In this document: piece by piece, positions 2,004 to 60,942 of the stretch | Position numbering within the stretch: the first letter of the stretch is position 1 | Layout of the letters: each line of letters starts with the position of its first letter | Assembly (NCBI GenBank): GCA_044337105.1 | Contig: JBIIOE010000003.1 | Location: 4,850-68,849, forward strand | Origin: Bdellovibrionota bacterium | GTDB taxonomy: Bacteria > Bdellovibrionota_C > UBA2361 > OMII01 | DNA length: 64,000 nt | Direction of reading: 5' to 3' | The notes under the pieces: model-generated | Seen by the model: the letters and a program-made list of their open reading frames with translations, nothing else | Database searches by the model: none | What the model was told of the DNA's origin: nothing | Made by a program: the position numbers and the translations under genes

Positions 2004-3164
2004 ATGGAGATTACGATTCCCAAATCTGAGCTCGCTAAACTTCTTCACGTCACATTGGCAATGGCGGAGAAGAAAGCAACGATGCCGATCTTGGCCAACG
2101 TCCTTCTCTGTGCAGAAGAGAAGAGTTTGAAAGTAACAGCGAGTGATTTAGAAATTACCGCGATTGCTTTCTCGGCAGCTTCCGTTAAAAAGCAGGGAGC
2201 GATAACTATTAATGCAAAGATGTTTGGAGATCTCGTTCGAGAGCTTCCCGATGGAGATGTGACCATTCGAGCTACAGATCGCGACCGTGTGGAGGTTGTG
2301 GCGGTTAGTTCTAAACTCAAGGTGGTTGGAGTAGGTGCTGAAGAATATCCCGTTCCTCCTGGATTGTCGCTGAAGACGAAGTGCAAGATCCCCGCCCCTA
2401 CCCTGATCGAGATGATCAACAAAACGCTCTACGCCGTATCTCTCGATGAGGGCAGATACAACATGAACGGCGTGTGCTTGGAGATGTCAAAGGAGGGTAA
2501 GAGCAGTGGGCTGCGCATGGTGGCAACCGATGGTCACCGACTTGCACTCATCACTCGCCCAATCGAAGGGGTAGAGTTCACAGGGTTGTCGGCGAAAGGT
2601 TCACAGAAAACCGAAACGTCGGCAGATCACGTCATCGTTCCTCGTAAAGGAATCGCTGAAGTTCGTAAGGCGCTCGAAACCGCTGGTGATGTATCGGTTG
2701 GGGTCGATGTCAGTGAAGGCTTTATGGTCGTAGAGGGACCGACCTGGAAGTTGGTTGTTCAACTTCTCGATAGCGAGTTCCCGAATTACTCGCAGGTTTT
2801 ACCGAGTGCCCCAGGCAACAGGATGACCGTTTTGAGTTCACAGCTATCACAAGCATTAAAGCGTGTGTCTCTTGTGGTGAGCGACAAAAACAAAGGTGTT
2901 CGATTCGACTTCTTCCCGAATCTGCTCCGTATCTCGAGCTCTTCGCCCGAAGTGGGAGAGGCGCAAGAGGAAGTGGAGATTCAGTATACCGGTAAGGAGT
3001 TCTCTGTTGGTTACAACGCGCGTTACATCATCGATTTGCTCGCAGCGGTAAGTGAGAATCAGCCCTTCGTGATGGATCTCGCGGGAGAAACAGGACCGGG
3101 TAAATTTTACTCCGAGTCCGATGAGTCGTGCTTCGGTATCGTGATGCCTCTCAGGCTCGATTGA
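2004..3164 (+). CDS. dnaN: DNA polymerase III beta sliding clamp
   Basis: 386-aa ORF of typical clamp length. N-terminus reads MEITIPKSELAKLL...KATMPILANVLL and the C-terminus ends ...GIVMPLRLD. Lies between dnaA and recF. AGGGGG Shine-Dalgarno before the ATG. Confidence 0.96.
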   Translation: MEITIPKSELAKLLHVTLAMAEKKATMPILANVLLCAEEKSLKVTASDLEITAIAFSAASVKKQGAITINAKMFGDLVRELPDGDVTIRATDRDRVEVVAVSSKLKVVGVGAEEYPVPPGLSLKTKCKIPAPTLIEMINKTLYAVSLDEGRYNMNGVCLEMSKEGKSSGLRMVATDGHRLALITRPIEGVEFTGLSAKGSQKTETSADHVIVPRKGIAEVRKALETAGDVSVGVDVSEGFMVVEGPTWKLVVQLLDSEFPNYSQVLPSAPGNRMTVLSSQLSQALKRVSLVVSDKNKGVRFDFFPNLLRISSSSPEVGEAQEEVEIQYTGKEFSVGYNARYIIDLLAAVSENQPFVMDLAGETGPGKFYSESDESCFGIVMPLRLD

Positions 3165-3272
3165 TCGCACAGCTTTCAATGCGGCGGAAACAGCCCCGGT
3201 GGTCAACGAGTTCACCGGAGCTGTTCTCGCCGATGAACGCTCCACTCCAGTAAGGTTAGTTCAGGACTTCAC

Positions 3273-4379
3273 TTGTTCGTCTCTCAAGTAAGAGTTTTCA
3301 ACTTCAGGAATTTAAGCGACCAGTCGGTTGAGCTCTCTAGTGGCCCTATCTACATCACCGGTCTCAACGGTAACGGTAAGACGAACTTCATCGAAGCGAT
3401 CTATCTGCTCTCGGGATCACGGTCTTTCAGGACCAACGTGTCGAACGAACTGAGCAGATGGGGCGAATCTCAGTGCTCGGTGTTTGGGACAGTTACCCAC
3501 AAACTGGGAACCGAAGAGCTTGGGGTAGCTCTGACCCCTGGTAAGCGCGAGGCTTTTTTAAACGGGAACCCTTTGAGCTCTATCAGTGAGCTGCTTGGCC
3601 GGCTGACGATCGTGGCGTTCTCGCCAGCAGACCTGCAACTCATCAAGGGTTCGCCAGCGGGACGTCGCCGGTTTTTAGATCGTCACATGGTCGATATGCA
3701 GCCCGCTTTCTTAAAGACTTTGATGGCTTATCAACGAGCTTTAGCAAGTAAAAGTGCTTTACTTAAGCAGTCTTACGTTGATTATCAACAGCTTTTACCG
3801 TGGAACTCTCTACTTGCAGAGTACGGTGGAAAAATTGTTGAAAACAGATATAACTTTCTGAAATCGTTGACTGATAAGGCTTCTTCTTTTCACCGATCCT
3901 ACGCCCAAATGGATGGTGACTTGGGGCTTGAGTTGGAATCAGACCTGCTCGATCCAAGCGGGAAGGTCGATCCAACCTACATCGCTCATCAGTTTGAACG
4001 CTCTGCCCAGCGAGAGATAGCCACGAGAAGCCCTGTAGTTGGCGTTCAGAGGGACGATCTCAAGGTAACCTTGGGCGGAGTCGACAGTCGAGCTTATGCC
4101 TCACAGGGGCAAACCAGGAGCATCGTGCTCTCTTTGAAGTTGGGGGTTATCGATATGCTCGAGGAGATCAAGGGGGAGTCACCAGTGGTGCTCCTCGATG
4201 ATGTGGACTCTGAGCTCGACGTGGCTCGCTCGGAACGACTCTTCAGCACCCTGCTGGAGAAACCACGTCAGATGATAGTCACCGGAACCACAACCCCTCC
4301 TAAACCCCTCGAAGGTCACCTTTTATTGCAGATTTTGCAGATGATTAGTGGCCGCATCTCTGTCGTCGCAGCGCCCTGA
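3273..4379 (+). CDS. recF: DNA replication and repair protein RecF
   Basis: 368 aa with a TTG start. Walker A GLNGNGKTNFIEA, signature-like ASQGQTRS, Walker B VVLLDDVDSELD. Synteny supports the call. Confidence 0.94.
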   Translation: MFVSQVRVFNFRNLSDQSVELSSGPIYITGLNGNGKTNFIEAIYLLSGSRSFRTNVSNELSRWGESQCSVFGTVTHKLGTEELGVALTPGKREAFLNGNPLSSISELLGRLTIVAFSPADLQLIKGSPAGRRRFLDRHMVDMQPAFLKTLMAYQRALASKSALLKQSYVDYQQLLPWNSLLAEYGGKIVENRYNFLKSLTDKASSFHRSYAQMDGDLGLELESDLLDPSGKVDPTYIAHQFERSAQREIATRSPVVGVQRDDLKVTLGGVDSRAYASQGQTRSIVLSLKLGVIDMLEEIKGESPVVLLDDVDSELDVARSERLFSTLLEKPRQMIVTGTTTPPKPLEGHLLLQILQMISGRISVVAAP

Positions 4380-4450
4380 GCGAGGCAAAAAAGGGGCAAA
4401 AAAAGTAGCTTTGATTTGATTAGATCGAATGCTGGTTTGGGCTTTGCTAA

Positions 4451-6940
<2,490 letters not shown>

Positions 6941-7364: not shown

Positions 7365-9410
7365 TCACATACTAGGTGACAGCAAGACCCGCAAAATCTG
7401 CTTGAGAGTTTCGGTTGCGGGGCCTTCCGCATGAATGACATGAAATGCCGGATGCGATGTCGCTACATCCAAGAACCGAGCTCGATAGTGGGTTAGGTCC
7501 GTTTCTGTGTGATATTTCTCAGTCAGTGATTTGCCTGCTTTGACCAGGCGCTCTTGAGATGTCGCTACAGGAGCATCCAAGATGAAGTGGAATTCTTTCT
7601 CTCCCGGTAAGGGTGCTGTCGGATCGTCAGTCAGTTTGGTGGCAACACCCCTGTCAGCAACGCGCCATCCAAGCTCTTTGAGTTTCGCAACAACGGTGGA
7701 TTTACCAACCCCATCGTTACCATCGATAACTATCAGGTTCTCCTGTTGCTTGGTTATGAGCTGAGAGATCCATGCAGAAAACTTTCGAAGAACCTGACGA
7801 CGATGAGAGCGTAGGTTCTTGCGCTGTGGGTCGAGCTCCGCGAAAGAGACGCCATCGGTACGATCGGCGATAAAAAGACTATCATATCCGAATCCATGCT
7901 GCCCGGATTGGCCAGTGGCGATCTTTCCGCTACAGGTAGCTTTATCTTCGAAGAGTATAATCCCATCGGGTGTTGCCACAACAAGAGCTATCTCGAAGTA
8001 TGCTTCCCGGTTGCCCTCGGGGATATGCGTCATCATCTCGAGTACGCGCATGTTGTTGGCTTGGTCGATCTCATCGCGGAGGCGTTTTGAGTTGGTGTGC
8101 GAGACAAGTTTTCCATCGTGAGAGAATTCGCAATCAGAGAAACGAGCCGACCAAACTCCAGGGAGGCCGTTAAGGGCAGGGATAACGAGACCAGAATCCT
8201 CGGAGATCGCTATCCTGCCGGACGCTTTTGCATACTCGACCGCTTTTATGCGGGCGTTCTCGAGGAATGTTTCACCGCTCTCTTCAGGCTCTTTATCTGT
8301 ACGTATGACCTCCAAAGGGACATCGAGTGCGTCTAAGATCGCCTGAAATTCATGAACTTTGTGCGGGTTGCCGGTACCGAGGGAGAATCGAAGCTCAGGG
8401 TTAGTGTTGTGCGGAATAGCGTAGTACCGCTCCTCTTCGAGCGCCGGACCTGCGACGATCTCAGCCAGAAGTCGCCACTTCTCGAGCACCTGATTCGAAG
8501 AACCGCCGCTTCTCCACACGTCCTTGTCGAGGGAGCCCAAGAAGAAGTGTCGGAATCGGCCACAGTCGGGACTTACCTCGCCATATACGAGCTCCCCGTC
8601 CTCGGCGATAAAGAGGCACAGATCGTAGAGAACGATATCGCGCGCGCCTAAGAATTCGCTTAAGGCGTGGTTCATACGAAGAGCCGTGTGCCGAGCCTTT
8701 TCGACATCCAGAAAGTAATCGGCTAGGCGATCGGGAAGTATCTCGTCTGCTACACGTTTGCCGGTCTCTGGGTGTTCGAGAGGATTGCGCCAGTCGAAGC
8801 GAACGAGAGTGGTTGGATAGGGAAGTTCGTTGGCTATCGTGCTTCCCGCAAGGGTAGGATGGGTTGAACGGATCATGGCACCGCCCATGCCGAGGTAGCG
8901 ATGTTTTGAGGTTCCTGTGTGGGTGTTCTTTACGATCGTTTCAATTGGAGCAGCCTTAGGCAGGCGACTAATCTCTTCGCGGGAGAGATCCTGTGGGGTA
9001 AAGGGAGGAATCTTATACTTTTTAAACTCGGCCTCTGTGGGCATGACAAGCTTGGAGATAATCAGTTTCTGGTCTAGCAGGACCTCCTGGTATGCATGCT
9101 TGATACCGGCACGCTTTAAAACCTCTAGAAACGACCTCGAAGTTTCGAGGCGGATATGATCTGAGCCTGGGACCACATCGCAGCGGTTGTGAGTGAACGA
9201 ATACACCGTCGGCTTGAAGCGGATCGCAACGAGACCTTTGCCGAGATACCGAACGTCTTTACTCTCTCCTTCGATCACTTTAGGAAGTTGCTCGAAATCA
9301 ATGAACGATGAGGTAATAGATCCGCTTATCTCTCCCGCTGCGAGCTGTTTGAAGTTGTCAGGAAGGCCAGAGAGAGAAGCAGATTCGTTATTTGATGATG
9401 GAGAGGCCAT
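7365..9410 (-). CDS. Three-domain fusion: SAICAR-synthetase(PurC)-like, RdgB/HAM1 non-canonical NTP pyrophosphatase, P-loop nucleotide kinase-like
   Basis: 681 aa. Residues about 50-305 are PurC-like (IETIVKNTHTGTSKHRY; IVLYDLCLFIAEDGELVYGEVSPDCGRFRH). Residues about 340-548 are RdgB-like (SLGTGNPHKVHEF, EESGETFLENARIKA, SEDSGLVIPALNGLPGVWSARF, GFGYDSLF, RSHRR). Residues about 556-681 are P-loop (IVIDGNDGVGKST). Confidence 0.85.
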   Translation of the reverse strand: MASPSSNNESASLSGLPDNFKQLAAGEISGSITSSFIDFEQLPKVIEGESKDVRYLGKGLVAIRFKPTVYSFTHNRCDVVPGSDHIRLETSRSFLEVLKRAGIKHAYQEVLLDQKLIISKLVMPTEAEFKKYKIPPFTPQDLSREEISRLPKAAPIETIVKNTHTGTSKHRYLGMGGAMIRSTHPTLAGSTIANELPYPTTLVRFDWRNPLEHPETGKRVADEILPDRLADYFLDVEKARHTALRMNHALSEFLGARDIVLYDLCLFIAEDGELVYGEVSPDCGRFRHFFLGSLDKDVWRSGGSSNQVLEKWRLLAEIVAGPALEEERYYAIPHNTNPELRFSLGTGNPHKVHEFQAILDALDVPLEVIRTDKEPEESGETFLENARIKAVEYAKASGRIAISEDSGLVIPALNGLPGVWSARFSDCEFSHDGKLVSHTNSKRLRDEIDQANNMRVLEMMTHIPEGNREAYFEIALVVATPDGIILFEDKATCSGKIATGQSGQHGFGYDSLFIADRTDGVSFAELDPQRKNLRSHRRQVLRKFSAWISQLITKQQENLIVIDGNDGVGKSTVVAKLKELGWRVADRGVATKLTDDPTAPLPGEKEFHFILDAPVATSQERLVKAGKSLTEKYHTETDLTHYRARFLDVATSHPAFHVIHAEGPATETLKQILRVLLSPSM

Positions 9411-9486
9411 AATACCTATATTTTTGGGGAAATTCTCGCGCTAGCTGGAATGATACTGAGCCTGTAGGTGTAGTCAATGCTCAGCA

Positions 9487-9640
9487 GGCGGCCTGTTCCG
9501 GACCGCGGAGCTTCCGCTCCGCTTGCTAGCATCGCTACGATCCTAAGGGAAGGCGGACTAGAAAGTCCGCGGTCCGTGTTCGCTCCGCTTGCGAGGAGCG
9601 CTACGCGCCTTGCAGAATGCGGACTCGTTTGTACCGGGCC
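9487..9640 (-). repeat. REP-type palindromic repeat cluster (2-3 units, inverted relative to the arrays beside the RAYT gene)
   Basis: GGACCGCGGAGCTTCCGCTCCGCTTGCTAGCATCGCTACGATCC and GGCGGACTAGAAAGTCCGCGGTCCG are reverse complements of the unit found at 19.5-21.1 kb. Confidence 0.75.
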
Positions 9641-9820
9641 GGCAGGAGCTATATCCGTCCTTGAGCGAATGTCAGGCTCATTATCAGAATGGCATCGCGG
9701 CGCATGAATCAAAGAGTCCGAGCACATCATAGTTCTTCTTGAGAGCTATGGCAGGGACGATAGATCTGCTCCGTAGAATCATCCTCCTACGAGCACGCGC
9801 AGCTCGTTCTGTTAATCTAC

Positions 9821-11776
9821 CTACTGATTTACTCGTACGGCCAAGGCTCCAGTAGCTTTCTCCCCGTTCTGCATCATCCGCAGCGCGGTAGTGAGCTCTT
9901 TCGGAGCCCCGTTCGATGTATTGATCGCCGCTGAGCGTTTAGTGCCGAACGTAATTATGCCGAGCTGTGCAAGTTGCGCCTCTTGAGCTCGTATTTTCTC
10001 TTTGGATGGGATTGGGCCAGCAATACCGCTGTATAAGCGATTATAGCGTGCTGATTCGGGGATCGATGCACCGACAGGATACTCCTCACCGCGCAGAAAG
10101 CCGAACTTGAGAATGGCATACGTAAGCCGAGGTGACGATACGCCCGCCGATTCAATGACCCGAGCTATGTGAGCTTCGGGGTGCTCAGGTACGTTAGAGA
10201 GCTCCTCACCCTCGCTCTCGATAAGATTTTGTAGCGCCTTAGCAGAGCAGAAGTGTCGAGGGGCATACGTTCCCTCTGAGAGAGTGGCGGTTATAACTGG
10301 GGTAACGGTTGATAGAGTCTTGAGGTACTCCTTGAACTGCTCTGGTATGGTGATCGCGTCCACGAGTAGTTGCGGGTTCTCCTGCAACAAGTCCAGTGCG
10401 ATCTGTGGGCCGACTATCTCGGAAATCTGCTCTTCGACATCGACTGCAATCAAGGCAGCTCCTAGCTCGTTTCTGCTCAGTTCACGGTATATCTGGTGCT
10501 GCAGATCTTCGTTTTCGACAAAGCGAGCGATGGGCGCTAGCTCAGCAGCAGCGATAGCGTTGTTTGGGGCTTCTTGCGCGCGCTCTCTCTCCTCTTGAAG
10601 AGCCTCGGCCGGCCCGATCGATGAGGCACGATTTAAAAGTGCCCGCAGTCGGGTCGCTCGCTCGCTGAGCTTAGCAGCGTCGCAATCCAGGAGATGCTGT
10701 GTGAGTACGCTGTCGAGCCCAGTAAGAGCTTTCTGCCGTTCTGCGAGCGTTGCTGACAAGAAGCGTTTTCCCAGGATCTCAAATGACGGCAGGTTCTCTT
10801 GTGAGAGGTAAAAGTCCATCGCAGCAAGCATCACCTTGGGGTCGGAGATCCTCTCAACGTCGGGACGAATACGCTCAAATCTGGTGTCCATCTCCTTGGC
10901 AAGCGCTTGTGAGGCGGCTTGTAATTGTTGCTCAGTAATCTCGCGCAGCGCTTGGTGGTATAGAGCTTCGGATTGGTCACCGTTGTTCGGAGAGAGGTCA
11001 TCAGAAAGCGTCGCCGCATCTGCGCAGAGCCGACGGAGTGAGCGCCAGTCAGAGAGATCGTTGGCTTGAGATAGCTCACGCGAGGCTTGCGATGCGCGGG
11101 CGGCGAGCTCTTGTGCACGATCGTTCACACCATCCAATGAATAGCGTGCCAAATCTTGCCCGGCTCTGGTCAGGTCGCTCAGCGTCCGGAGGACAGGAGC
11201 TATGAGTTGGGCGTATTCCTGCCGGATCGTGACTAATTTTGCTTTTACTAGCGTTCTCGCACGATTCTCATAGATGCCGATAGAGGCGCCAGGTACTTTG
11301 ACCAAATCCCCTTTTATCATAGCGGCGAAATCAGCATATAGGCTCCTGCTTACCGCAAGTCCTTCCCGCTCGGCGATTTTCACAAACAGCTGCTCTAGGG
11401 TCTTGCTATGTATTGCACTGAGAATCGTCACTTGTGCAAAGTACTGCGGTACTTTGGACATCTCGTCGAAAAACATAGCCTTTCGCAGTAGATCTGCAGC
11501 TTCGTTGTCCCTTGTATAGAGCGCGTCAATCGAGCTTTTGAGTGAGTCCACTGAATCAGTGAATTTCCTTATGCCGGAGCGTATATGTTGTATAGAAGCG
11601 AGGCGCGTATTCTTGCCGTCGCAGATGAGCTTCTTGCGTAAGTCTGAGAGGCCGCTTGAGAGAGCGGTGTGGAGCGTCGAATCGTCATAGATTCGGGCTG
11701 GAAGAATAGTGCAATGGCTCAAGGAGTCATCAGAGACACGAGATTGTTGTGAGTGATTTGCAGTCGTGGTTTTCAT
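9821..11776 (-). CDS. Hypothetical 651-aa protein, predicted mostly alpha-helical (island gene 6)
   Basis: Long uninterrupted ORF with protein-like composition; only short antisense ORFs overlap it. I recognise no motif. No clear Shine-Dalgarno at ATG 11776. Confidence 0.7.
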   Translation of the reverse strand: MKTTTANHSQQSRVSDDSLSHCTILPARIYDDSTLHTALSSGLSDLRKKLICDGKNTRLASIQHIRSGIRKFTDSVDSLKSSIDALYTRDNEAADLLRKAMFFDEMSKVPQYFAQVTILSAIHSKTLEQLFVKIAEREGLAVSRSLYADFAAMIKGDLVKVPGASIGIYENRARTLVKAKLVTIRQEYAQLIAPVLRTLSDLTRAGQDLARYSLDGVNDRAQELAARASQASRELSQANDLSDWRSLRRLCADAATLSDDLSPNNGDQSEALYHQALREITEQQLQAASQALAKEMDTRFERIRPDVERISDPKVMLAAMDFYLSQENLPSFEILGKRFLSATLAERQKALTGLDSVLTQHLLDCDAAKLSERATRLRALLNRASSIGPAEALQEERERAQEAPNNAIAAAELAPIARFVENEDLQHQIYRELSRNELGAALIAVDVEEQISEIVGPQIALDLLQENPQLLVDAITIPEQFKEYLKTLSTVTPVITATLSEGTYAPRHFCSAKALQNLIESEGEELSNVPEHPEAHIARVIESAGVSSPRLTYAILKFGFLRGEEYPVGASIPESARYNRLYSGIAGPIPSKEKIRAQEAQLAQLGIITFGTKRSAAINTSNGAPKELTTALRMMQNGEKATGALAVRVNQ

Positions 11777-11905
11777 ACATCAACTAGTACAGCGCATTAG
11801 AGCGATATTGTTTGGGGGGTGTTGGTTTTAAAAACCTTCGGTAAAACGCAGCGCGGATCTCTCCCCCCAAAGAAGATCAGCGCGGCATGCCTTAACAGGT
11901 TAAGG

Positions 11906-12424
11906 CTATCTAAATCGTAGTGTTACCACCACGCCTTCTGCTGAGAGCATGGCAGAGACCTCCAGTTCTTTCGGCAGGACGATCATTGGTTGACCGTTTA
12001 TGCGCCGAATTGAAAAGAGTTCATTGCTATCGCCTGGGGGAATATCAGGCATAATCAATGACTCCAGGGCTGTCGGAGAAGCCGCTGAATTTGCTACCGC
12101 CTCGGTCTTAGCAGGTTTCTTAGCTGACCCCCTTTTCCTCGAAGCTCGCCGTGATGGCGAACTCTCAATTTTCTTGGGGTTCAACAGGCAGCTCGGGTCG
12201 TGAAACTCGGCCTGGTTGCCCAGGTCGCGTCTCAAGCCGTCGACTTTTTCTGGAGCGAGGTGCCCGCGGCATAATTTTATGCTGCTGATGCTCCTCGCAG
12301 AAAGGCCGAGCTTTTCGCCCAACAAACGAGCCGCATCAGCCCATTTGTTGCTGGCCCAGCCAAGCTGCTTCGCATAGGTGGTCAGAAACTCCCGCCTAGC
12401 TTTTTTGAGTTTTTGCGAACTCAT
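11906..12424 (-). CDS. Small HTH-like protein with basic linker and possible AbrB/MazE-like C-terminus (island gene 5)
   Basis: ATG 12424 is preceded by GAAGGAAG. 172 aa. The HTH-like segment LGLSARSISSIKLCRGHLAPEKVDGLRRDL is paralogous to the upstream gene. Basic linker RRASRKRGSAKKPAK. C-terminus reads RRINGQPMIVLPKELEV. The ORF-track start (TTG 12484) is less likely. Confidence 0.6.
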   Translation of the reverse strand: MSSQKLKKARREFLTTYAKQLGWASNKWADAARLLGEKLGLSARSISSIKLCRGHLAPEKVDGLRRDLGNQAEFHDPSCLLNPKKIESSPSRRASRKRGSAKKPAKTEAVANSAASPTALESLIMPDIPPGDSNELFSIRRINGQPMIVLPKELEVSAMLSAEGVVVTLRFR

Positions 12425-12755
12425 GTCTTTCACTTCCTTCGTTAGAGCCACGTGAGCCCCAGACACCGCGTCCGAGGTCGTCAATGTTGATAAACTCCGA
12501 ATGGGCCGCTAGGGCTTTTCGAAGTTCCTCAAGTTTCTCGTCACCAAGATTCTTTTCCCCGAGTCTGACCCGGGTTAAGTGGCGAGTTCCCAACTGTAGC
12601 GTTTCAGCGAGCTGCTGATCACGCTGTGGCCAGGAATCGACTGGCGGCAGGTTGAGGATGCTTAACACGCAGTTAATGAGCCCCTCTCGTTTTTGGCGTA
12701 CCTGCTGACGAGAGACAGGTAGCTTGTTTAGCCGCGCTTCTCTTGTCGAAGCCAT
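12396..12755 (-). CDS. Small HTH-like protein (island gene 4)
   Basis: ATG 12755 is preceded by GAAAGGAAAGGA. 119 aa. Segment LQLGTRHLTRVRLGEKNLGDEKLEELRKAL. Its 3' end overlaps the next gene by 29 nt. The ORF-track N-terminal extension to 12938 crosses a large hairpin and looks non-coding. Confidence 0.55.
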   Translation of the reverse strand: MASTREARLNKLPVSRQQVRQKREGLINCVLSILNLPPVDSWPQRDQQLAETLQLGTRHLTRVRLGEKNLGDEKLEELRKALAAHSEFINIDDLGRGVWGSRGSNEGSERHEFAKTQKS

Positions 12756-12863
12756 GGGTCCTTTCCTTTCTGTAAAACAATTAAAAAACATGAACCAACA
12801 CCCATCACACGTCTCAACGAAAGAGGTGTGATTGGTACTGTTTGGTGCTTCTTGGCCTCGGTT

Positions 12864-12949
12864 AATCGGAGGTGGTAAGGAGTAAAACCTTAACGTAGGT
12901 AAAGGATACTCCTCCACCTCCGATTGTAATCTCTGCACGAGTGGCAGAG
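12864..12949 (-). terminator. Two stacked hairpins downstream of the 560-aa gene
   Basis: CTCTGC/GCAGAG stem at 12931-12949 directly after the stop codon. A long hairpin at 12864-12925 follows: AATCGGAGGTGG..AGGAGTA pairs with TACTCCT+CCACCTCCGATT, 19 bp in total. No U-tract. Confidence 0.4.
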
Positions 12950-12950
12950 C

Positions 12951-14633
12951 TTACTGAGTGCTGAGCTTGCGGCATAATGCGTTTAAGTCAGCTCTAATTT
13001 TTTCGAGCTGAGAGTCGAAGAGAACTTCAGGATCCTGTAGTGAATCCCAGGGTTCGTCCGAATCAGTCCCGGTTTGCGACACCTTCACGAGTAAGGGCCG
13101 CTGAGCAACAGGACGAGTTTCTGAGCTATCGTTCCGTGGAGGCGTCGCCTCTGCGGAGGAATGCTCGATGGAATCCGGCTCTGCCTCCGCAGGCAAGTTC
13201 TCGTCCGACGAAGACGACACCTCCACAGGTGGAGTTACACTCTCAGGTAGCTTGGTTTGGAGAGGTAGGACCTCGTCTAAACCGGCCTCAGGAGAGAGTC
13301 GTCTCCACAGCTCCACTGCGTCCTTGAGAACCGAGCCATATGCATGTGCTCGGCGGTCACTCGGATTTAATGGGTCTGAAAGAACTAGGAGCGCCATTTT
13401 AGCGAGCTCCTCTTTCGTCCAGCGTGGATTGTCCTCCTGTGCTCCCGTTGAGAACGAGAAACCGTAGGGAGGCGTGTCCCGCAAGCAGATCGTTCCTACG
13501 CGAGGAAGAAGTGGCGGCGAAGCGGCTGCTCCGTCGCTATGACTCTCCGAGAAAGATTTTTGGACGCTCTTTTGGATAGCGGCCCATGAATCTTTCTGCG
13601 ATCGCGTAGCCTTGTTGCCACTTGGTAGCCAGGCGTGGAATGTCTGGTTTTCTTGTGGGAAAACCTGCACTGCATAGCTTGAGAACTCTGGCCCCAGCAC
13701 GACGGTCGTGAAGAGCTCCACGAGATCAGAGAACCTTGGAAAGAGCACCCGATCCGCAGTACTACCCCAGTAGCGAGTACTATCTTCCTCGAGGTTTTCG
13801 TTTGTTATAGTGGCGAGCTGATATTGCTCGCCAACTTTAACTAAACCAATTCCAAGGGATGAAGTATCTCCGTCTGGGAGATAGAGAAGAGACACTACGT
13901 TGTCCAGGGTACCTTCAGAAGCGTTGGGCGGCTCGTCGGGCGAGTCGCTTTGCTCCGTAGGTCCAGAAGTAGGGGTATCCTCAGCGAACACGGCAACACC
14001 GATGCTTTTTGGTGCCTCCTCCTCAGACAGGGGAAAAGGGACTGTCCAGCCAGCAATCGGCTCTACCAATGTTTCTGAAACAAGGTAGTTGCCCGTGAAT
14101 TTCGAGGATGGGGTGAGCATAAGCCACGGTATCCATACCCTCTTGTCGAAACGCCGCGTGAAGTTGTCGCTGATAACTATGGCTGCAAACTCTAAAAGAG
14201 TTCTCAAGCTACAGTTACAGTTGGTCAGTCTCCACGGGCGCTCTTCGCCTTCCGCATACCAGAGCGTTGACTCTCCTAGGGTTATAGCCTCCTTTCTTAA
14301 CAATCTTGATCGATCGTCGAGAGAAGGAATGCCGTATCTTCCCTCCTGCGAACGCAGCTTGCGTCGTAGTTCCGCAGCTGCCGGTCCCCACTTCCTCATT
14401 CCTCGTGGGATTTCAAACCCCTCAAGGTAAAGGTGTGGACAAAGCCTCTCTGTCGTTGGGTTGTTGAGCAACTTCACGCTCAAGGACAGTAATCCCCAAG
14501 CGTCTAGTGCTAGCTCGTCGAGAGCGGAACGCCTGAGTTTTCCCGAAGGGCTTGAACTCACGACCGAGAAGCTAACATTGTCTTCAAGTTGCCTTACCAA
14601 AACTCGCATCGCGCCAACGATAATTTCGTTCAT
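12951..14633 (-). CDS. Hypothetical 560-aa protein with acidic and Pro/Ser-rich linkers (island gene 3)
   Basis: Long ORF. ATG 14633 is preceded by AGGAAGG, 4 nt upstream; the ORF-track ATG 14723 has no Shine-Dalgarno. I recognise no catalytic motif. Confidence 0.7.
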   Translation of the reverse strand: MNEIIVGAMRVLVRQLEDNVSFSVVSSSPSGKLRRSALDELALDAWGLLSLSVKLLNNPTTERLCPHLYLEGFEIPRGMRKWGPAAAELRRKLRSQEGRYGIPSLDDRSRLLRKEAITLGESTLWYAEGEERPWRLTNCNCSLRTLLEFAAIVISDNFTRRFDKRVWIPWLMLTPSSKFTGNYLVSETLVEPIAGWTVPFPLSEEEAPKSIGVAVFAEDTPTSGPTEQSDSPDEPPNASEGTLDNVVSLLYLPDGDTSSLGIGLVKVGEQYQLATITNENLEEDSTRYWGSTADRVLFPRFSDLVELFTTVVLGPEFSSYAVQVFPQENQTFHAWLPSGNKATRSQKDSWAAIQKSVQKSFSESHSDGAAASPPLLPRVGTICLRDTPPYGFSFSTGAQEDNPRWTKEELAKMALLVLSDPLNPSDRRAHAYGSVLKDAVELWRRLSPEAGLDEVLPLQTKLPESVTPPVEVSSSSDENLPAEAEPDSIEHSSAEATPPRNDSSETRPVAQRPLLVKVSQTGTDSDEPWDSLQDPEVLFDSQLEKIRADLNALCRKLSTQ

Positions 14634-14773
14634 AAAACCTTCCTCTAAAAAGTGAAAACATCTCTTACCACCACCCTGCACGGTAAACCCGTCCAGGGTG
14701 TGGCAAGAAGCACATCTACTCATATTGAATTGTTAAAGAGGGTAAGACCTCGACCGTAGTGGCCGTGTGCCTA

Positions 14774-14881
14774 CATCCTTATACCCTCTCGCTTCACTCG
14801 TAAGGTGAGGAGATAAGGATGCAGGGTGGTTGTGTTAAACGAGCCCTGCAAAGGTCTCAGTGTTTCTTTCGTCGCACTGAG
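14774..14881 (-). terminator. Cluster of three hairpins downstream of the GHKL ATPase gene
   Basis: Inverted repeats CATCCTTAT/ATAAGGATG (14774-14821), GCAGGG/CCCTGC (14821-14849) and CTCAGTG/CACTGAG (14856-14881). No clear U-tract. Confidence 0.35.
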
Positions 14882-14896
14882 TTACTACAGGAAACC

Positions 14897-16408
14897 TCAG
14901 AAAAGTCTGGCAGAGTACATTCCGTTGAATGCCGCATCTAACGCCTCTTGCCCTGGCACTTCGTCATAGGCGTTGTAGTGCCGAGCCCAGGCGATGATAA
15001 GGCAGAATGCAGCCCGCGCACGGATTTTCATCCGTTCTTGATCAGACTTTGCTGCAGTGAGCAGCCGCCCCAGATCTTCACCTTCCTTGCTGATGAGAAT
15101 ACGGTGCTGTGCTGCATCGTACTGGAGCTTTTTCCCTCCAATCGCCCTTGAATCTACGAATGCATAGCCGGGGATACCCCTGCTTCGCTTTCGAGTAGGT
15201 CTAGGGGGTTTTCCTGGCTCATCATCATCATCGGGCGGAGGCGGAGGATCGTCGGCGCCTGGTTTCGGCTTCGGCTGCTTCGGAGGCTTACTGGGAGGCT
15301 TGCCATCAGGACTGTTCGCCCCTTGAAAGCCAGCCAGCTCGTCTCCGAACTTGACGAGAAGTTCTTGTACCAATTGTTCTTCCATCGGTTGATTCCGATC
15401 GAAGTATTGCGCCTCGTACGTTTTCATCCACGCCAGAAGCCGGTCGGGCAAATTATTTACCACTTCTGCCTTAGCGCCCTCCTCGTCCCATTCGGTGATC
15501 GCCGACCGGTCGAACGTATGCGCTACGTCCGTCCCGGTAGCCTCTACAATCAGCATCAGCTCCGCGGTGCCTGCATATATCCCCCATTGAGAGAGACTGT
15601 TTGCATGCATCGGAAGGTACCATTTGTGGGCCTCCCCATTGTGGCCGATTGCCAGTGGAGCATGCGGGAATTCTTCTTGAAGAGCTTTGTCAGGGCTCTC
15701 CTTCCTGACTCCCCACCAGAGCTTGCAGCTCTTGTACTCCTTTTCGCCGTAAAACTGAGACCGAGCCACTAAACAATCGATGCCGCCGCGTACGGTGCGC
15801 CAGCTAGCTTCTCGCCCTGTTACGCCGTTTTCGGCCACGAGGATCGTAGTTGGGAGTCGTAGGTACCGCTTATTGAGGTACTGCACGATTCCCTTCCAGT
15901 CGACTCCGAGGCCTTGCAGCTTGACAACGGTTGAGTACTCTTTCCAGGTGGGAGGTGCCTCGACGCTGGTTGTCGTATCGCCGCTCGCTGATTGGTGAAG
16001 CACTCCGTGCCTTCCCGTATCATCAACTTGGCCAAGGCTGATTTTTTGGAATCGGCTGCGATTACCTTGGGGTCTGGAAAATACTTCGATTCCCGTTCTG
16101 GTAATCATGCTTGCGAGTTTCAATCCGACGCCGAAGTTTTTACCTCGGCCCTTCGTTTTGGAACCAGCACCCAAGTCCTTGTTGAACTTGAGCAGCTCTT
16201 CAGCCGTCATTCCGACTCCGTTGTCGGCAACGCAGACGTCTCCGTTTGCGTCTACCCAGAGGTGAATCAGGGCGCTAATTCCCCGCTTGGCCTCGAGGCT
16301 GTTCTGCACAGCCTCGCGGAGAGGAATGAGGGGGTCCGTTCTAAGGTTTTCCACTAACCATTTCTGGTTTTCTAAACCAAACGCTTTTCCTCCGTACGAT
16401 TTTTTCAT
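14897..16408 (-). CDS. GHKL-superfamily (HATPase_c_3 / MORC-like) ATPase with poly-proline linker (island gene 2)
   Basis: 503 aa. Bergerat-fold motifs: N-box REAVQNSLEA, G1 ADNGVGM, G2 GKNFGVGLK. Linker GKPPSKPPKQPKPKPGADDPPPPPDDDDEPGKPPRPTRKRSRG, followed by an unassigned C-terminal domain of about 90 aa. Confidence 0.88.
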   Translation of the reverse strand: MKKSYGGKAFGLENQKWLVENLRTDPLIPLREAVQNSLEAKRGISALIHLWVDANGDVCVADNGVGMTAEELLKFNKDLGAGSKTKGRGKNFGVGLKLASMITRTGIEVFSRPQGNRSRFQKISLGQVDDTGRHGVLHQSASGDTTTSVEAPPTWKEYSTVVKLQGLGVDWKGIVQYLNKRYLRLPTTILVAENGVTGREASWRTVRGGIDCLVARSQFYGEKEYKSCKLWWGVRKESPDKALQEEFPHAPLAIGHNGEAHKWYLPMHANSLSQWGIYAGTAELMLIVEATGTDVAHTFDRSAITEWDEEGAKAEVVNNLPDRLLAWMKTYEAQYFDRNQPMEEQLVQELLVKFGDELAGFQGANSPDGKPPSKPPKQPKPKPGADDPPPPPDDDDEPGKPPRPTRKRSRGIPGYAFVDSRAIGGKKLQYDAAQHRILISKEGEDLGRLLTAAKSDQERMKIRARAAFCLIIAWARHYNAYDEVPGQEALDAAFNGMYSARLF

Positions 16409-16665
16409 CTTTTCGCCTTTTTCGCCGGAATTCGGTCCGTCATCCGTGCAAAAATGGAGAGAAGTTCAAAACCTTCTCTAACAACCACCATGCAGCGCAG
16501 GCCGAACGGACTCCACTGCATGATGGTCTTTACCCTCTTTACCCATAATATTTTTTTCAAAGAGCTTTGTGCGCGTACCGCCACATGAAATCGGCGGCGC
16601 AGGATTATGCTGTTAAGTCATAAAACCTTCGCCAGTGGGCAGCGGCATGATGAGATTTTCTCTCA

Positions 16666-17913
16666 TTAGCCGTTGCCGTTCTTGTAGAGGCTCTTGAGGA
16701 GATCCTTGGCCGAAGCTGCTTGTGCTTTTTGAAGCGCAGCTTCTCCTTCGGAAAGACCGTTCTCTCGCTCCTTCAGGTCTGCCTCGCGGCGATCGAGCGT
16801 TTCGGTTTCAGACTGCATGAGCTGATCCCATTCCTCTTGATCTTCTTTTAGAGCCTGTCGCTCTTGCTCCACCTTTTGGCTTTGGGCTTCTATTTCTGAA
16901 GCTAGGGCCTTGAGGTTTGCGATGTGAGTCTCGGCGAGCTCTTTTGCCTCCGTCGCCTTGGCTATCTGCTCCTGCAAGAGTATGCGAAGAATCCCCGCAT
17001 GCTTTGCGAAGAGCAGCTCGGCCTGCTGATCAAGCTCAGCTGTAGAAACTCCGTCGGGTGCGGGTTGTACCCCCGCATCCGTTAGTGCTTTTGCAGCCGC
17101 TTGCACCATAGCCACCAGGGGGGGGATCAATAGAGCCAGCGGCCCAGCTTGATCGCTGCTTGAGAGCTTTTCTACATCGAGCAGAGCTCTCAGTAGATTC
17201 CCCGCGCCGTCCTGACGTGGCTCTGTCGCTGCAGGCTCTTTCGGTGTGACGACGTTGTCTGTCGGCGAAACTGGTGGTTTCGCAACAGTCGCGTCGCCTA
17301 GAGGCTGTTCCCAGATGTCATCTGGAAGCTCCCTCGTCTCCAGCAAGCTACGTGCAGGCTGATCTCCCTCCCAATACTCGGGCCGCAACGAAGGCGCCCA
17401 CGGTACATGGTAGCTGGGAAGATTCTCGCGCACCCACTCATCGCGTAATGCGATGCATGCGAGGGCCAGTATGATTTCCGGTCCTACTTTGAGCGGTCCT
17501 CCATGATCGGTGCTGAGTGTCCACCGGTTCCCGTCTACCTTGCGAAAGGTGAGGTTTCCGAGGACAACATCTTTCCCGTGGTTGAGCAGGCTCCTTTGTT
17601 GGGGGGCCAAGCTAGGACGACCCTTGCGGGCCGCTTCGAGCTTTTGCGCGAGAGCCCGCAACTCATCCTTCGAGTTTGGGTTAATGGTGTTCATCGGCAA
17701 AGCCAAAGACTCCATCAACCCGTTTCCCTCAACCTTGATGGGTGATCTGGCCCCCAACAGGTGGATGAAAAAGATTATCCAACTCGTCAGCGGAGCAGTC
17801 GGCGCTTTCGTCGCCTTCTTATCCTGGCCGAGATAGAAACCAAATTTCTCCCCCTTTACGGAACCGAAACTATACCCCTCGAGCTTGAGATCCCGCGCTT
17901 GGGTTTGAGTCAT
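16666..17913 (-). CDS. Hypothetical 415-aa protein with C-terminal coiled coil (island gene 1)
   Basis: ATG 17913 is preceded by AAGGAG, 9 nt upstream. The C-terminal ~110 aa are heptad-like and E/Q/K/A-rich (EAKELAETHIANLKALASEIEAQSQKVEQERQALKEDQEEW...). The ORF-track start at 18147 reads through a repeat element. Confidence 0.7.
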   Translation of the reverse strand: MTQTQARDLKLEGYSFGSVKGEKFGFYLGQDKKATKAPTAPLTSWIIFFIHLLGARSPIKVEGNGLMESLALPMNTINPNSKDELRALAQKLEAARKGRPSLAPQQRSLLNHGKDVVLGNLTFRKVDGNRWTLSTDHGGPLKVGPEIILALACIALRDEWVRENLPSYHVPWAPSLRPEYWEGDQPARSLLETRELPDDIWEQPLGDATVAKPPVSPTDNVVTPKEPAATEPRQDGAGNLLRALLDVEKLSSSDQAGPLALLIPPLVAMVQAAAKALTDAGVQPAPDGVSTAELDQQAELLFAKHAGILRILLQEQIAKATEAKELAETHIANLKALASEIEAQSQKVEQERQALKEDQEEWDQLMQSETETLDRREADLKERENGLSEGEAALQKAQAASAKDLLKSLYKNGNG

Positions 17914-17998
17914 CTTTGGTGACTCCTTTCTTAACTGATGCCAACCTTCGAAATAAAAATCACAGCATCTCGCTGCGCCGACCTGGCACTCCGTTCGG

Positions 17999-18180
17999 GG
18001 AAGCAAGGCAAAACCCTTCCCTGCTGCGAAGGTGGATCTTGGGTTGCTCTTCGATGTTGGCGACATGGACAAATCCTCAGGGGATCGCGGCGGATACACC
18101 TGCGGTTTTTCCACATCGAGAAGATCGAATATCAACCCAACCTCCACCTTTTCGCTACGGGTAGGTTTTGCTTTGCTTCC
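17999..18180 (-). repeat. MITE-like repeat element, about 182 bp, with terminal inverted repeats (copy 2)
   Basis: Terminal inverted repeats GGAAGCAAGGCAAAACC (17999-18015) and GGTTTTGCTTTGCTTCC (18164-18180). Roughly 80 percent identical by eye, in inverse orientation, to 28385-28568. Confidence 0.75.
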
Positions 18181-18523
18181 TTAGGCGCTGCCAGGTCGGC
18201 GCTGAGAGATGAACTCTTTGAAATGATCTAGTTGTTAAAGAGCGAGTATGAGGGCTTGTGGTATGTGCACTTTGAAAGTGACACGCGAGAGCAAAAGCTT
18301 TCGTTACGCTGAAGTTCCTCGTTGGAGATAGTATAGGGGGTCGGTGACTTGCTAGTAAACGAAGGTTTGAAAGTGAGTGTGCGACCAGTGAAAAAGCGTA
18401 GAGCAGGGGCTTGTCTGGTGGGCAGACTAGCACTGAGAGCGACCCATACGAGCAACCTTCGATTGATTAAGCCCTATAAGGCTCGCAGGCTAGTTTTCAG
18501 ATCTTAAATCGACAGGTTGTTAG

Positions 18524-19410: not shown

Positions 19411-19523
19411 TCTGGCCAACTTGATAGTGAGGAGCGGCGTTCGGGTATTAGTAACAGTGACCGCCCGGCGGTTCAACCGAAAACCTACGGACTGTGGGTT
19501 GCTTGGTGTTTGGAGCGCGTTGC

Positions 19524-19876
19524 GGATCGCTGGTGGAGTGGAGGTTCCGTGGTGCTTGGGGGGCGCTTTCTGTTTGGATCGTGGCGCTGATATCTGGCGG
19601 AGCGGCAGCGGACCGCGGACTTTCTAGTCCGCCTGCTGCTTGGATCGCGGTGCTGATATCTAGCGGAGCGGAAGCGGACCGCGGACTTTCTAGTCCGCTT
19701 GCTGCCTGGATCGTGGTGCTGATATCTAGCGGAGCGGAAGCTCCGCGGTCCGTGGGGGTCCGCTTGCTGCCTGGATCGTGGTGCTGATATCTAGCGGAGC
19801 GGAAGCTCCGCGGTCCGTGGGGGTCCGCTTGATGCTTGGATCGTGGTGCTGATATCTAGCGGAGCGGAAGCTCCGT
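19524..19876 (+). repeat. Tandem REP array (about 5.5 units, 65-bp period) at the 3' side of the RAYT gene
   Basis: Unit GGATCGTGGTGCTGATATCTAGCGGAGCGGAAGC + (GGACCGCGGACTTTCTAGTCCGC or TCCGCGGTCCGTGGGGGTCCGC) + TTGCTGCCT. Internal hairpins GCGGACT-TTCT-AGTCCGC and CGGAGC-GGAA-GCTCCG. Confidence 0.88.
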
Positions 19877-20512
19877 TATGTCTGGTAGCCAGCCTGCTGA
19901 ACCGAATCTCCAATCGGCTTCTCTCTCTACTAAGCCAGCCCGTACTGGATTGGTGTCGATGTATCGAACGACTCTTGAGAGGTGCTCCGCATCGCGGATG
20001 TATCGGTCGAAGTATTCGGGAAACCAGAACGGACCTGCGGTTCCTAGGATCTGATTGGCTCGTTTTGCGGTGAATCCTTTAAATGAACGTAGGACAGATG
20101 AGAGTCTTACAGTGGGATGTGCTGCAATCAGCAGATGGAGGTGGTTTGGCATAATCACCCATCGTGCAATGGTGTGTCCTCGGGCACACAGGAACTGCAT
20201 GGACTCTATGACTACGTAGGCAACTTTTGATTGTCTCAATACGCATGAGCCGTGACCTGCATCGATCATTTTCTCGAGCTTGAGTTGACGGGCTTGGCCG
20301 AGGTCGATTGAAGGTGTGCCACTGGCTTTTAGTTCAGCAAGTTCGTTACGCAGGGCGTCATGCATACTCTGTGGTAATGAGTCGGCGAGGCGTATGGTAA
20401 CAAAATGCAGAAGGTTGCCGGCATCGAAGTGGGGAAGATAGCCTCTGCTCCACCAGCCATGGGGATTCCTAAAGGAGTGGCTGTATCTGTTTCGGTGGTC
20501 TCGCTCTTTCAT
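19856..20512 (-). CDS. REP-associated tyrosine transposase (RAYT; IS200/IS605 Y1 HUH family)
   Basis: 218 aa. HUH motif in VIMPNHLHLLI; catalytic Tyr region RVVRYIDTNPVRAGLV. REP arrays flank it on both sides. The last codons (ITELPLR-stop) are encoded by a REP unit. Confidence 0.9.
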   Translation of the reverse strand: MKERDHRNRYSHSFRNPHGWWSRGYLPHFDAGNLLHFVTIRLADSLPQSMHDALRNELAELKASGTPSIDLGQARQLKLEKMIDAGHGSCVLRQSKVAYVVIESMQFLCARGHTIARWVIMPNHLHLLIAAHPTVRLSSVLRSFKGFTAKRANQILGTAGPFWFPEYFDRYIRDAEHLSRVVRYIDTNPVRAGLVEREADWRFGSAGWLPDITELPLR

Positions 20513-20574
20513 GCTCGGAGATATCGGCGAGAGCAGGAGAAAGTTTCTTGGGGTTGGTGGGGGGGCTGCTGTTT

Positions 20575-21069
20575 GGATCTCGTTGCTGATTGCTGGCGGA
20601 GAGGGGGGCGGACTGTGGACTTTCTAGTTCGTTTGCTGGTTGGGTCGTGGTGCTGATAGCTGGCGGAGCGGGAACGGACCGCGGACTTTCTAGTCCGCCT
20701 GCTGCTTGGATCGTGATGCTACTAGCTAGCGGAGCGGGAGCTCCGCGGTCCGTGGGGGTCCGCCTGCTGGTTGGATCTCGTTGCTGATTGCTGGCGGAGT
20801 GGAAGCGGACTGTGGACTTTCTAGTCCGCCTTCTGGTTGGGTCGTGATGCTGATATCTGGCGGAGCGGGAGCTCCGCGGTCCGTGGGGGGCCGTCTACTG
20901 TTTGGGTCGCGGTGCTGATTGCTGGTGGAGTGGAAGCGGACCACGGACTTTCTAGTCCGCCTGCTGTCTGGATCGTGATGCTACTAGCTGGCGGAGCGGG
21001 AGCTCCGCGGTCCGTGGGGGGGGGCCGCCTTCTGGTTGGATCTCGTTGCTGATGGCTGGCGGAGCGGGC
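20575..21069 (+). repeat. Tandem REP array (about 7.5 units, 65-bp period) at the 5' side of the RAYT gene
   Basis: Same unit and orientation as 19524-19876. The two hairpin variants mostly alternate. The array ends 4 nt before the rnhA stop codon. Confidence 0.88.
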
Positions 21070-28384: not shown

Positions 28385-28568
28385 GGAAAGCAAGGCAAAA
28401 TCTACCCGTCGCGAGAAAGTGGAGGTTGAGTTGATATTCGATTTTCGCGATGTGGAAAAGCCGCAGGTGTATCCGCTGCGATACACTGAGGATTTATTCC
28501 ACATCTCAAAAATCGAAGAGCCACCCAAGATCCGCTTTCGTAGCAGGCAGGGGGTTTGCGCCGCTTCC
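28385..28568 (+). repeat. MITE-like repeat element (copy 1), abutting the TonB-dependent receptor stop codon
   Basis: Terminal inverted repeats GGAAAGCAAGGCAAAATC (28385-28402) and GGTTTGCGCCGCTTCC (to 28568). The interior matches the inverse of 17999-18180, including GTGGAGGTTG.GTTGATATTCGAT and GATGTGGAAAA.CCGCAGGTGTATCCGC. Confidence 0.75.
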
Positions 28569-60931: not shown

Positions 60932-60942
60932 CTAGCTGCGCG

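Follow-up and report, generated by a model that had tools for sequence, protein, structure and literature searches.

What is the block of six same-direction genes that lies beside the dnaA-gyrB region of a Bdellovibrionota bacterium, and what might it do? We examined this question in a stretch of 64,000 nucleotides (nt) from contig JBIIOE010000003.1 (assembly GCA_044337105.1), here called the window; all coordinates are positions within these 64 kb. A prediction made from the letters alone (the original prediction) had described the block as an 8.4-kb accessory island around a GHKL ATPase, bounded by repeats and inserted near oriC. The six minus-strand open reading frames (ORFs) that it named are present between 9821 and 17913, both in the ORF listing and in ortholog alignments, and the alignments fix the gene starts. 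In order of transcription, the genes are gA (16666 to 17913), encoding 415 amino acids (aa); gB (14897 to 16408; 503 aa), the GHKL ATPase; gC (12951 to 14633; 560 aa); gD (12396 to 12755; 119 aa, 106 to 107 aa in relatives); gE (11906 to 12424; 172 aa); and gF (9821 to 11776; 651 aa). The best-supported statement is that this cassette is a genuine operon of six genes, very rare and without a match in any of the libraries searched.

Gene order and distribution of the cassette

Five of the six proteins, gA, gC, gD, gE, and gF, found no match in Pfam, NCBIfam, PADLOC, PHROGs, or PDB sequence profile searches, in agreement with the earlier proposal that the genes correspond to no described system. 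PADLOC-DB 2.0, which covers defense systems described up to 2023, gave no significant match for these five proteins or for the six proteins of a divergent relative, L089; scans of the L089 set against Pfam, NCBIfam, PADLOC, and PHROGs returned only the GHKL domain.

Among 5.8 billion proteins, close relatives of gB form five clusters, with 69 to 95% identity. L001 has the full six-gene order, with synteny as in the window. L088 is near-identical to the window and shares the six-gene synteny, and its cassette adjoins gyrB and dnaA. L002/L003 carry the full order among unrelated flanks, which include an AbiEii gene, and L087 and the P0003 contig hold the cassette in part; the flanks on the P0003 contig are different again. 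A HMMER search with a gC profile found 12 proteins among 1.84 billion representative proteins. Three of these matches were looked up (L089, the P0014 contig, and the P0015 contig), and each belongs to a cassette of the same order and similar gene sizes. The L089 cassette encodes proteins of 398, 517 (GHKL), 559, 97, 177, and 754 aa, and its gB is 30% identical. On the P0014 contig, which comes from Lake Mendota, a bpMoxR gene lies upstream of genes for 405, 525, 559, 98, and 214 aa. The P0015 contig (GCA_041445565.1) has proteins of 251, 506, 477, 95, 177, and 665 aa, with housekeeping genes on the flanks. Among the source samples, JGI 3300059473 comes from the freshwater series of Lake Mendota.

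Five of the six L089 proteins (hA, hB, hC, hD, and hF) match window proteins; the signal is weak for hE, and for hD against gD (hhalign E of 0.004 to 0.007, probability 5 to 9%). The flanks of the cassette differ in L002 and in the P0003, P0014, and P0015 contigs, placing it at different chromosomal sites. The six-gene order is present in at least four further divergent lineages, and the expectation that the genes occur as a block outside this genome was borne out, at other chromosomal sites. Metagenome contigs from JGI yielded a single gB locus, and a scan of GTDB genomes found distant solitary GHKL genes only. As a separate observation, contigs of 72,463, 31,972, 40,833, and 26,797 bp encode an MlaE or UvrD protein with 90% or higher identity to its L001 counterpart; these four are not among the known gB carriers, so they may be cassette-free relatives.

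The distant solitary GHKL proteins are about 610 aa long (P0006, P0007, and loci L004 to L085), are found in many phyla, and are about 25% identical to gB over its full length. In 17 of 85 such loci, a tyrosine integrase is encoded no more than about 3 kb away. One of them, L004, is beside dnaA-dnaN and next to a tyrosine integrase, and another, L005, adjoins an AIPR gene. These proteins have no PADLOC or specific Pfam assignment. Searches of their neighborhoods with tblastn and hidden Markov models (HMM) found no gA-, gC-, or gF-like genes, so the solitary genes do not belong to the system of the cassette.

The GHKL ATPase and its partner proteins

The GHKL fold proposed for gB was confirmed. 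gB matches Pfam HATPase_c_3 (E = 2.7e-10; 40.8 bits against a cut-off of 25) and HATPase_c (28.4 bits against 26.4), and its ATP-binding residues, E32, N36, D62, G66, and N91-F92-G93-G95-K97, are invariant in eight sequences down to 25% identity; with motifs I to III and Pfam scores above the cut-offs, it belongs to the GHKL superfamily. No Pfam family besides these two HATPase models matched gB at E ≤ 1. The protein consists of an ATPase plus a second domain (residues ∼1 to 335), a Pro/Asp/Lys linker (351 to 420), and a conserved C-terminal domain (∼411 to 503). An AlphaFold2 (AF2) model has a predicted local distance difference test score (pLDDT) of 52 overall and of 60 to 80 over residues 25 to 235. 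In Foldseek, this model comes closest to Hsp90, GyrB/ParE, MutL, and Topo VI-B, at template modeling (TM) scores of only 0.2 to 0.35, a likeness generic to all GHKL-plus-transducer proteins.

Against the NCBIfam equivalogs for MutL, Hsp90, Topo VI-B, and MzaB, gB scores 14 to 20 bits, and the cut-offs are 274 to 850. Scores so far under the cut-offs indicate that gB is a GHKL protein but a member of none of these four families. We considered three of these identities individually and rejected them. As a MutL, gB reaches 14.4 bits against a cut-off of 391, and the PDB profile search, in which nothing significant emerged for gB, gave no MutL match. As Hsp90/HtpG, it reaches 20.4 bits against 455, and the Foldseek likeness is confined to the generic GHKL-plus-middle-domain core. 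As MzaB, it reaches 16.2 bits against 850; the PADLOC MzaB model matches at E = 1.9e-4 over residues 30 to 115 only, and the other Mza models are unmatched. The MORC-like label that the original prediction had attached to gB fared no better: there is no Pfam match to MORC S5, and MORC structures fall outside the top 50 Foldseek matches. The segment GIVQYLNKRYL (residues 173 to 183) fits 9 of the 11 positions of the MORC motif GhXhhpXXRhl by eye, but it lies inside the ATPase domain and is not a demonstrated S5.

An N-terminal extension of gB by about 40 residues, seen in relatives, was rejected for the window, where it is out of frame and the frame of gB itself has upstream stops; it is also absent from distant homologs. 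The corresponding DNA holds a 38-codon upstream ORF (16405 to 16521, minus strand; MQWSPFGLRCMVVVREGFELLSIFARMTDRIPAKKAKR), the stop of which overlaps the gB start as ATGA. A 4-nt difference in L001, L002, and L087 fuses this ORF in frame, giving the annotated 539- to 549-aa versions of gB. The gA-gB spacer also carries, at ∼16612 to 16620, a ribosome-binding site (RBS) followed by ATG-NNN-TAA.

The N-terminal domains of gA and gC, of about 150 residues, are paralogous: they are linked by cross-family BLAST matches and by a coherent alignment of 18 sequences, and the gC profile retrieves proteins of gA layout (P0017 to P0019 and P0021), with the N-terminal domain plus a coiled coil. In gA, this domain is followed by a Pro-rich linker and a C-terminal coiled coil of ∼100 aa. 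Orthologs of gA are 59% identical in L001 and 46% identical in L002, and its library matches are weak ones to coiled-coil proteins only. In gC, the domain is followed by two acidic/Ser linkers, two more conserved segments, and a C-terminal helix. The AF2 model of gC has a pLDDT of only 40, and Foldseek returned nothing, an output that is meaningless at such a score. The best PDB match of a 13-sequence N-domain profile is a ubiquitin variant, at a nonsignificant E of 0.023 over a P-QQR-L-GK-L-G segment and an hhalign probability of 5%. The segment at residues ∼85 to 125 of both gA and gC (e.g., LAPQQRSLLNHGKDVVLGNLTF) resembles the ubiquitin core; with scores this weak, it is a lead only. Longer ORF versions of gC (590 aa) and gD (180 aa) were rejected because their upstream parts are conserved as DNA and not as protein, with frame changes and missing ATG codons in relatives.

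The two small proteins gD and gE are, as predicted, both overlapping and paralogous: the genes overlap by 29 nt, and the proteins align with an hhalign probability of 91% (E = 1e-6). gE combines a gD-like N-terminal domain, a basic/Ser linker, and a small beta-rich C-terminal domain, and it matches the small protein hD of L089 (E = 7.6e-7). The helix-turn-helix (HTH)-like reading of gD and gE lacks statistical support. The pattern in both sequences looks XRE-like, but there is no Pfam or NCBIfam match, and in hhalign comparisons with the P22 C2 repressor, the expected HTH segment of gE aligned at a probability of 2.3% (E = 0.02) and gD at 0.3%. gF is largely helical and is the fastest-evolving gene of the cassette, with 48% identity in L001 and 34% in L002. 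Its conserved core (residues 444 to 519) matches the 754-aa product of the sixth gene of L089 (hhalign 76%, E = 2e-5). Disordered Pro/Ser/acidic linkers had been claimed for all four large proteins; low-complexity linkers of Pro/Ser/acidic or basic type are found in gA, gB, and gC, and also in gE, and gF has no clear disordered one.

Noncoding elements, boundaries, and evolutionary rates

Together with the leader, the spacers between the genes are the most highly conserved parts of the cassette. At four junctions, A-B, B-C, C-D, and E-F, they are 129 to 263 nt long, and each contains two or three stable hairpins. Nucleotide identity between the window and its relatives is 81 to 90% (L001) and 67 to 75% (L002) in spacers, compared with 62 to 78% and 48 to 68% in coding regions; in noncoding DNA just outside the unit, it is 45 to 61%. 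Synonymous sites of the cassette differ from those of L001 at 39 to 55% of positions. That the spacers are kept while synonymous sites have diverged so far shows that they are under strong constraint. All divergent cassettes repeat this arrangement, with long spacers at these four junctions and a tight D-E one, and nhmmer searches of L089 and L090 with the spacer alignments found no sequence similarity. The spacers are unique within the window, in which Rfam gave nothing at gathering score and two chance-level matches at E ≤ 5, both in coding regions.

All four spacers are read on the minus strand. The gA-gB spacer (16409 to 16665) has hairpins at 16596 to 16633, 16483 to 16528, and 16458 to 16479, and its identity (87% with L001 and 71% with L002) exceeds that of any coding region. 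In the gB-gC spacer (14634 to 14896; 90% and 75%), hairpins lie at 14845 to 14891, 14770 to 14825, and 14662 to 14709, the last followed by a U-rich tract. Changes on both sides preserve six pairs in this spacer, three of which belong to the first hairpin, and a mutually exclusive alternative pairing, ACCACCCTGCA with TGCAGGGTGGT, is possible. The gC-gD spacer (12756 to 12950; 87% and 74%) has hairpins at 12926 to 12954, 12865 to 12924, and 12796 to 12840, with a U-run after the last, and contains five compensatory pairs. The gE-gF spacer (11777 to 11905; 81% and 67%) has hairpins at 11846 to 11888 and 11824 to 11836. With alignments as shallow as 3 to 5 lineages, the covariation in these hairpins can be called suggestive but is no statistical evidence. 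In the gC-gD spacer, an 18-nt stretch (12793 to 12810; GGGTGTTGGTT...) has its complement in the gE-gF spacer (11810 to 11827; AACCAACACCC...), and the two bracket gD-gE; a long-range pairing between these spacers is possible.

A sigma-70-like promoter, TTTACT-N18-TATACT, lies at 18330 to 18359 on the minus strand, as identified by consensus scan and conservation. Both hexamers are kept in L001 and L002, with a spacer of 17 to 19 nt, and in L002 the genes upstream are unrelated. The consensus scan found no second sigma-70-like promoter on the coding strand of the unit. The leader (17914 to 18329, minus strand) contains a long hairpin with arms at 18189 to 18211 and 17966 to 17988, the sequences of which are unique in the window, then a U-run (∼17951 to 17965) and the RBS of gA. 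In L001, L002, and L087, the hairpin is a tight stem-loop of ∼25 bp with a U-run just upstream of the RBS of gA, and comparison of the three shows one compensatory pair; the promoter lies about 120 nt further upstream. We infer that the cassette may be expressed as one transcript, with a leader attenuator and intercistronic termination or processing signals.

A short motif is common to the leader (GCTCTTTAACAA at ∼18243) and the gA-gB spacer (GCTCTTTGAAA at ∼16565). Its consensus, GCTCTTT[AGT]A[ACT]A, has only two copies in the 64-kb window, compared with ∼0.3 expected by chance, and both are on the sense strand in noncoding DNA of the cassette. It is also found in noncoding regions of divergent cassettes, at 1703 and 3647 in L089 and at ∼250 in L090, which brings the cassette clades that have it to three.

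The promoter upstream, together with the end of cassette conservation at the gF stop codon, beyond which nothing is conserved, indicates that the unit spans ∼18359 to 9821. These limits differ from those first proposed, in which the block ended at 18190 and two repeats served as its boundaries. Both repeats exist. A cluster of repetitive extragenic palindromic (REP) units is present near the gF end (9482 to 9650) and belongs to the same family as the arrays around a REP-associated tyrosine transposase (RAYT) gene. The element at 17999 to 18180, with no strand assigned, is a true miniature inverted-repeat transposable element (MITE), with 17-nt terminal inverted repeats (GGAAGCAARGCAAAACC) and a second full copy at 28388 to 28568 (84% identity); the family is about 180 nt long, and partial copies lie at 60892 to 60935 and 56782 to 56811. 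In the window and in the near-identical L088, the MITE occupies the loop formed by the leader hairpin; L001, L002, and L087 lack it at this site. It is a passenger and not a boundary, and the promoter lies beyond 18190. Both the MITE and the REP cluster are repeats of the genome at large, and their presence here is incidental.

Housekeeping genes lie on both sides, as the original prediction had noted. On one side, dnaA-dnaN-recF-gyrB (25 to 6940) is followed by a three-domain nucleotide-metabolism gene; on the other are GDPD, the RAYT gene framed by REP arrays, rnhA, which encodes RNase H, and mla genes. No tRNA was found anywhere in the window, again as predicted, and the Pfam scan of window proteins revealed no integrase within the cassette. 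The RAYT gene is 1.4 kb away, beyond the GDPD gene, and the repeat analysis of the window found no direct repeats flanking the unit. The G+C content of the cassette, 0.51 to 0.57, is like that of its flanks. The idea of accessory DNA inserted near oriC is not supported: G+C and synonymous divergence (dS) both have flank-like values, and an integrase and a tRNA are absent.

In the flanks themselves, the RAYT gene (19856 to 20512) encodes an IS200-like Y1 transposase and lies between two REP arrays (19480 to 19870 and 20543 to 21067) with units of ∼65 nt each; L001 lacks this RAYT/REP block between rnhA and GDPD, and L088 has an identical one. Between the cassette and gyrB, a minus-strand gene (7365 to 9410) encodes a 681-aa fusion with a SAICAR-synthetase-like N terminus, a Ham1/ITPase domain (E = 1e-43), and a thymidylate-kinase-like P-loop C terminus. 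The L001 counterpart of this interval holds a pyridine-nucleotide-disulfide oxidoreductase-rhodanese gene and a 288-aa gene, so this spot is variable among relatives.

To compare rates of evolution, we calculated nonsynonymous divergence (dN) and dS between the window and L001 for eight flanking housekeeping genes and the six cassette genes. The housekeeping genes have 90 to 99.6% aa identity, dN of 0.003 to 0.058, dS of 0.55 to 0.82, and dN/dS of 0.01 to 0.08. The corresponding values for the cassette genes are 48 to 79%, 0.13 to 0.50, 0.76 to 1.3, and 0.13 to 0.54. The cassette proteins thus change 5 to 20 times faster than their neighbors. The dS of the cassette is close to that of the flanks, which indicates that it has been at this locus since before the window and L001 split and did not insert recently. 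Over 11,308 nt, L088 shows no difference from the window; in the 415 nt that remain before its contig ends, 50 positions differ (12%; window 13325 to 12911, L088 11309 to 11723), and these lie within the 3′ portion of gC. The apparent switch would reflect either recombination between alleles of different strains or a chimeric assembly.

Possible functions of the cassette

We tentatively prefer to read the cassette as a conflict or defense module, which would be directed at nucleic acids, act against phages or plasmids or silence foreign DNA, be gated by RNA, and use a clamp ATPase of the MutL/Hsp90/MORC class. A conflict role is favored because the proteins evolve fast beside slow neighbors, gC shows an apparent allele switch, and the distribution is patchy; because two copies have conflict-type neighbors (AbiEii in L002 and bpMoxR on the P0014 contig); and because of the contexts in which distant GHKL relatives occur (integrases in 17 of the 85 loci and one AIPR gene). 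In such a module, gB would be an ATP-gated dimeric clamp with a MutL/Hsp90 layout, in which a flexible, Pro-rich linker joins the GHKL module at the N terminus to a C-terminal domain. gA and gC, with their common N-terminal domain, flexible linkers, and C-terminal coiled-coil helices, could be adaptor or sensor subunits of gB; gD and gE may be nucleic-acid-binding regulators or specificity factors; and gF may be a scaffold or an unrecognized effector. The leader and intercistronic hairpins, as attenuators and/or RNase III-type processing sites, would hold expression low and graded. A variant that we consider quite unlikely makes the structured intercistronic RNAs functional parts, which would be processed and join the GHKL clamp and the paralogous partners in a ribonucleoprotein or would sense a trigger; in this variant, the cassette would represent a new class of ATP-driven system, its partner proteins would have domains not seen before, and the one common to gA and gC may be cryptic ubiquitin-like.

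Several observations weigh against a conflict role. No effector family (nuclease, helicase, methylase, TIR, or protease) was recognized in any cassette protein, and the sole PADLOC contact is the weak GHKL-domain match of gB to MzaB. The cassette matched nothing in IMG/VR contigs or phage genomes, and plasmids gave one weak match. Residence at one locus near dnaA/gyrB since the window/L001 split (dS of ∼0.7) is unusually stable for defense genes. All cassette genes have dN/dS below 1, and their fast change may merely reflect disordered linkers; the gC switch in L088 could be a metagenome assembly chimera; and the structure models (pLDDT of 52 for gB and 40 for gC) are too poor to judge the folds of the partners.

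The position of the cassette raises the option of a lineage-specific module for chromosome or nucleoid organization or one tied to the origin, with a MORC/SMCHD1-like GHKL clamp and coiled-coil partners that compact or bridge DNA near the origin. The cassette adjoins gyrB/dnaA in the window, L088, and L001 and is vertically inherited there, a distant GHKL relative also lies beside dnaA-dnaN, gA has a coiled coil, and an effector was not found. However, the cassettes of L002, P0003, P0014, and P0015 are not at comparable loci, the cassette is far too rare for a core function, and its proteins evolve 5 to 20 times faster than housekeeping genes, so we regard this option as fairly unlikely. The best Foldseek and NCBIfam matches of gB, both to the Hsp90 family, would instead suggest a dedicated Hsp90-like protein-remodeling machine in a stress-response operon, with gF, gA, and gC acting like co-chaperones alongside two regulators. 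Such a machine would fit the N-domain, linker, and C-domain layout of gB and the helical nature of gF, and leader and attenuator regulation is common in stress operons. We nevertheless judge it unlikely: the Foldseek matches are generic GHKL-plus-transducer ones at TM scores of 0.2 to 0.35, the NCBIfam HSP90 model gives 20 bits against a cut-off of 455, and a rare, patchy distribution and fast evolution are atypical of chaperones.

Mobility offers two further explanations. The cassette could be a remnant or cargo of a mobile element or prophage, a phage-style polycistronic transcript, with signals for processing or termination from one cistron to the next, surviving as a selfish or addiction module; it occupies different chromosomal sites among lineages, it encodes two small repressor-like proteins, its distant GHKL relatives lie near integrases, and the hairpins between its cistrons are reminiscent of those that RNase III cleaves in the early operon of phage T7. 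But no integrase, transposase, att-like repeat, or structural gene is in or beside any copy, phage and IMG/VR matches are lacking and the plasmid match is single and weak, and the six genes are intact and under purifying selection, all of which makes this origin improbable. The repeat-bounded accessory island near oriC is contradicted, and we hold it to be extremely improbable. A REP cluster and a MITE do lie one near each end, and the window and L001 have different genes between cassette and gyrB, but the MITE interrupts the leader hairpin of the operon itself and is absent there in relatives, the REP cluster is one of many RAYT-tied copies, neither repeat is found at the cassette ends in L001 or L002, and dS and G+C match those of the flanks.

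How does the cassette compare with known systems? Prokaryotic MORC/paraMORC GHKL ATPases of restriction-modification-like systems are sporadic, and a clamp or DNA-looping role has been proposed for them (Iyer, Abhiman, and Aravind 2008; PMC2292703). gB resembles them in that the GHKL module at its N terminus contains every ATP-binding motif and precedes a second domain, in a G(K)NFGVGLK box that resembles the MORC/Hsp90 type, and in its sporadic distribution. Unlike the paraMORC systems, the cassette has no superfamily II helicase, nuclease, or methylase partner by Pfam, NCBIfam, PADLOC, or PHROGs, gB has no Pfam MORC S5 or demonstrated GhXhhpXXRhl motif, and its five partners are unrelated to described paraMORC neighborhoods. 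With MutL, gB shares the GHKL-plus-transducer unit, the Pro-rich disordered linker, and a conserved C-terminal domain, and MutL N-terminal fragments are among its best structural matches; the cassette, however, lacks a MutL C-terminal/endonuclease motif and a MutS or MutH partner. GHKL ATPases also occur within multigene or fused defense systems such as MZA and GHKL-Shedu (VcSduA; PMC12137116). MzaB is the only PADLOC model touched by the cassette, through its GHKL core, but only at 16 to 18 bits, and the Mza partners and the DUF4263 nuclease domain are absent. CapK/CapS (PMC13373217) was considered and set aside, as CapK is a small anti-sigma-factor-type kinase with a STAS-domain partner. The solitary ∼610-aa GHKL proteins have ∼25% identity across gB including its C-terminal domain, but they occur singly, in contexts that vary and often include an integrase, and never beside gA-, gC-, or gF-like genes.

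Operons with intercistronic RNA elements provide a second point of comparison; they include the RNase III sites of the phage T7 early region, the eps-associated EAR, and the put antitermination RNAs of HK022. The cassette resembles them in having stable, conserved hairpins between consecutive cistrons of what may be one transcript, some with U-runs. It differs in that there is no sequence or Rfam match and in that the four spacers and the leader each have a sequence of their own, better conserved than the genes.

The cassette is known from a handful of freshwater metagenome lineages, a rarity that limits its immediate reach. If it functions as a unit, it would be a six-component system in which only a generic ATPase fold is recognizable. 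It brings five protein families, including a domain common to two of them, that are without counterpart in the family and structure libraries searched. Its near-constant spacers beside rapidly diverging proteins form an unusual pattern of selection, one that points to RNA-level control or RNA components. In gB, it would add a distinct branch to the GHKL clamp ATPases (MutL, Hsp90, MORC, and Topo VI-B), enzymes at the heart of DNA repair, chromatin silencing, and immunity.

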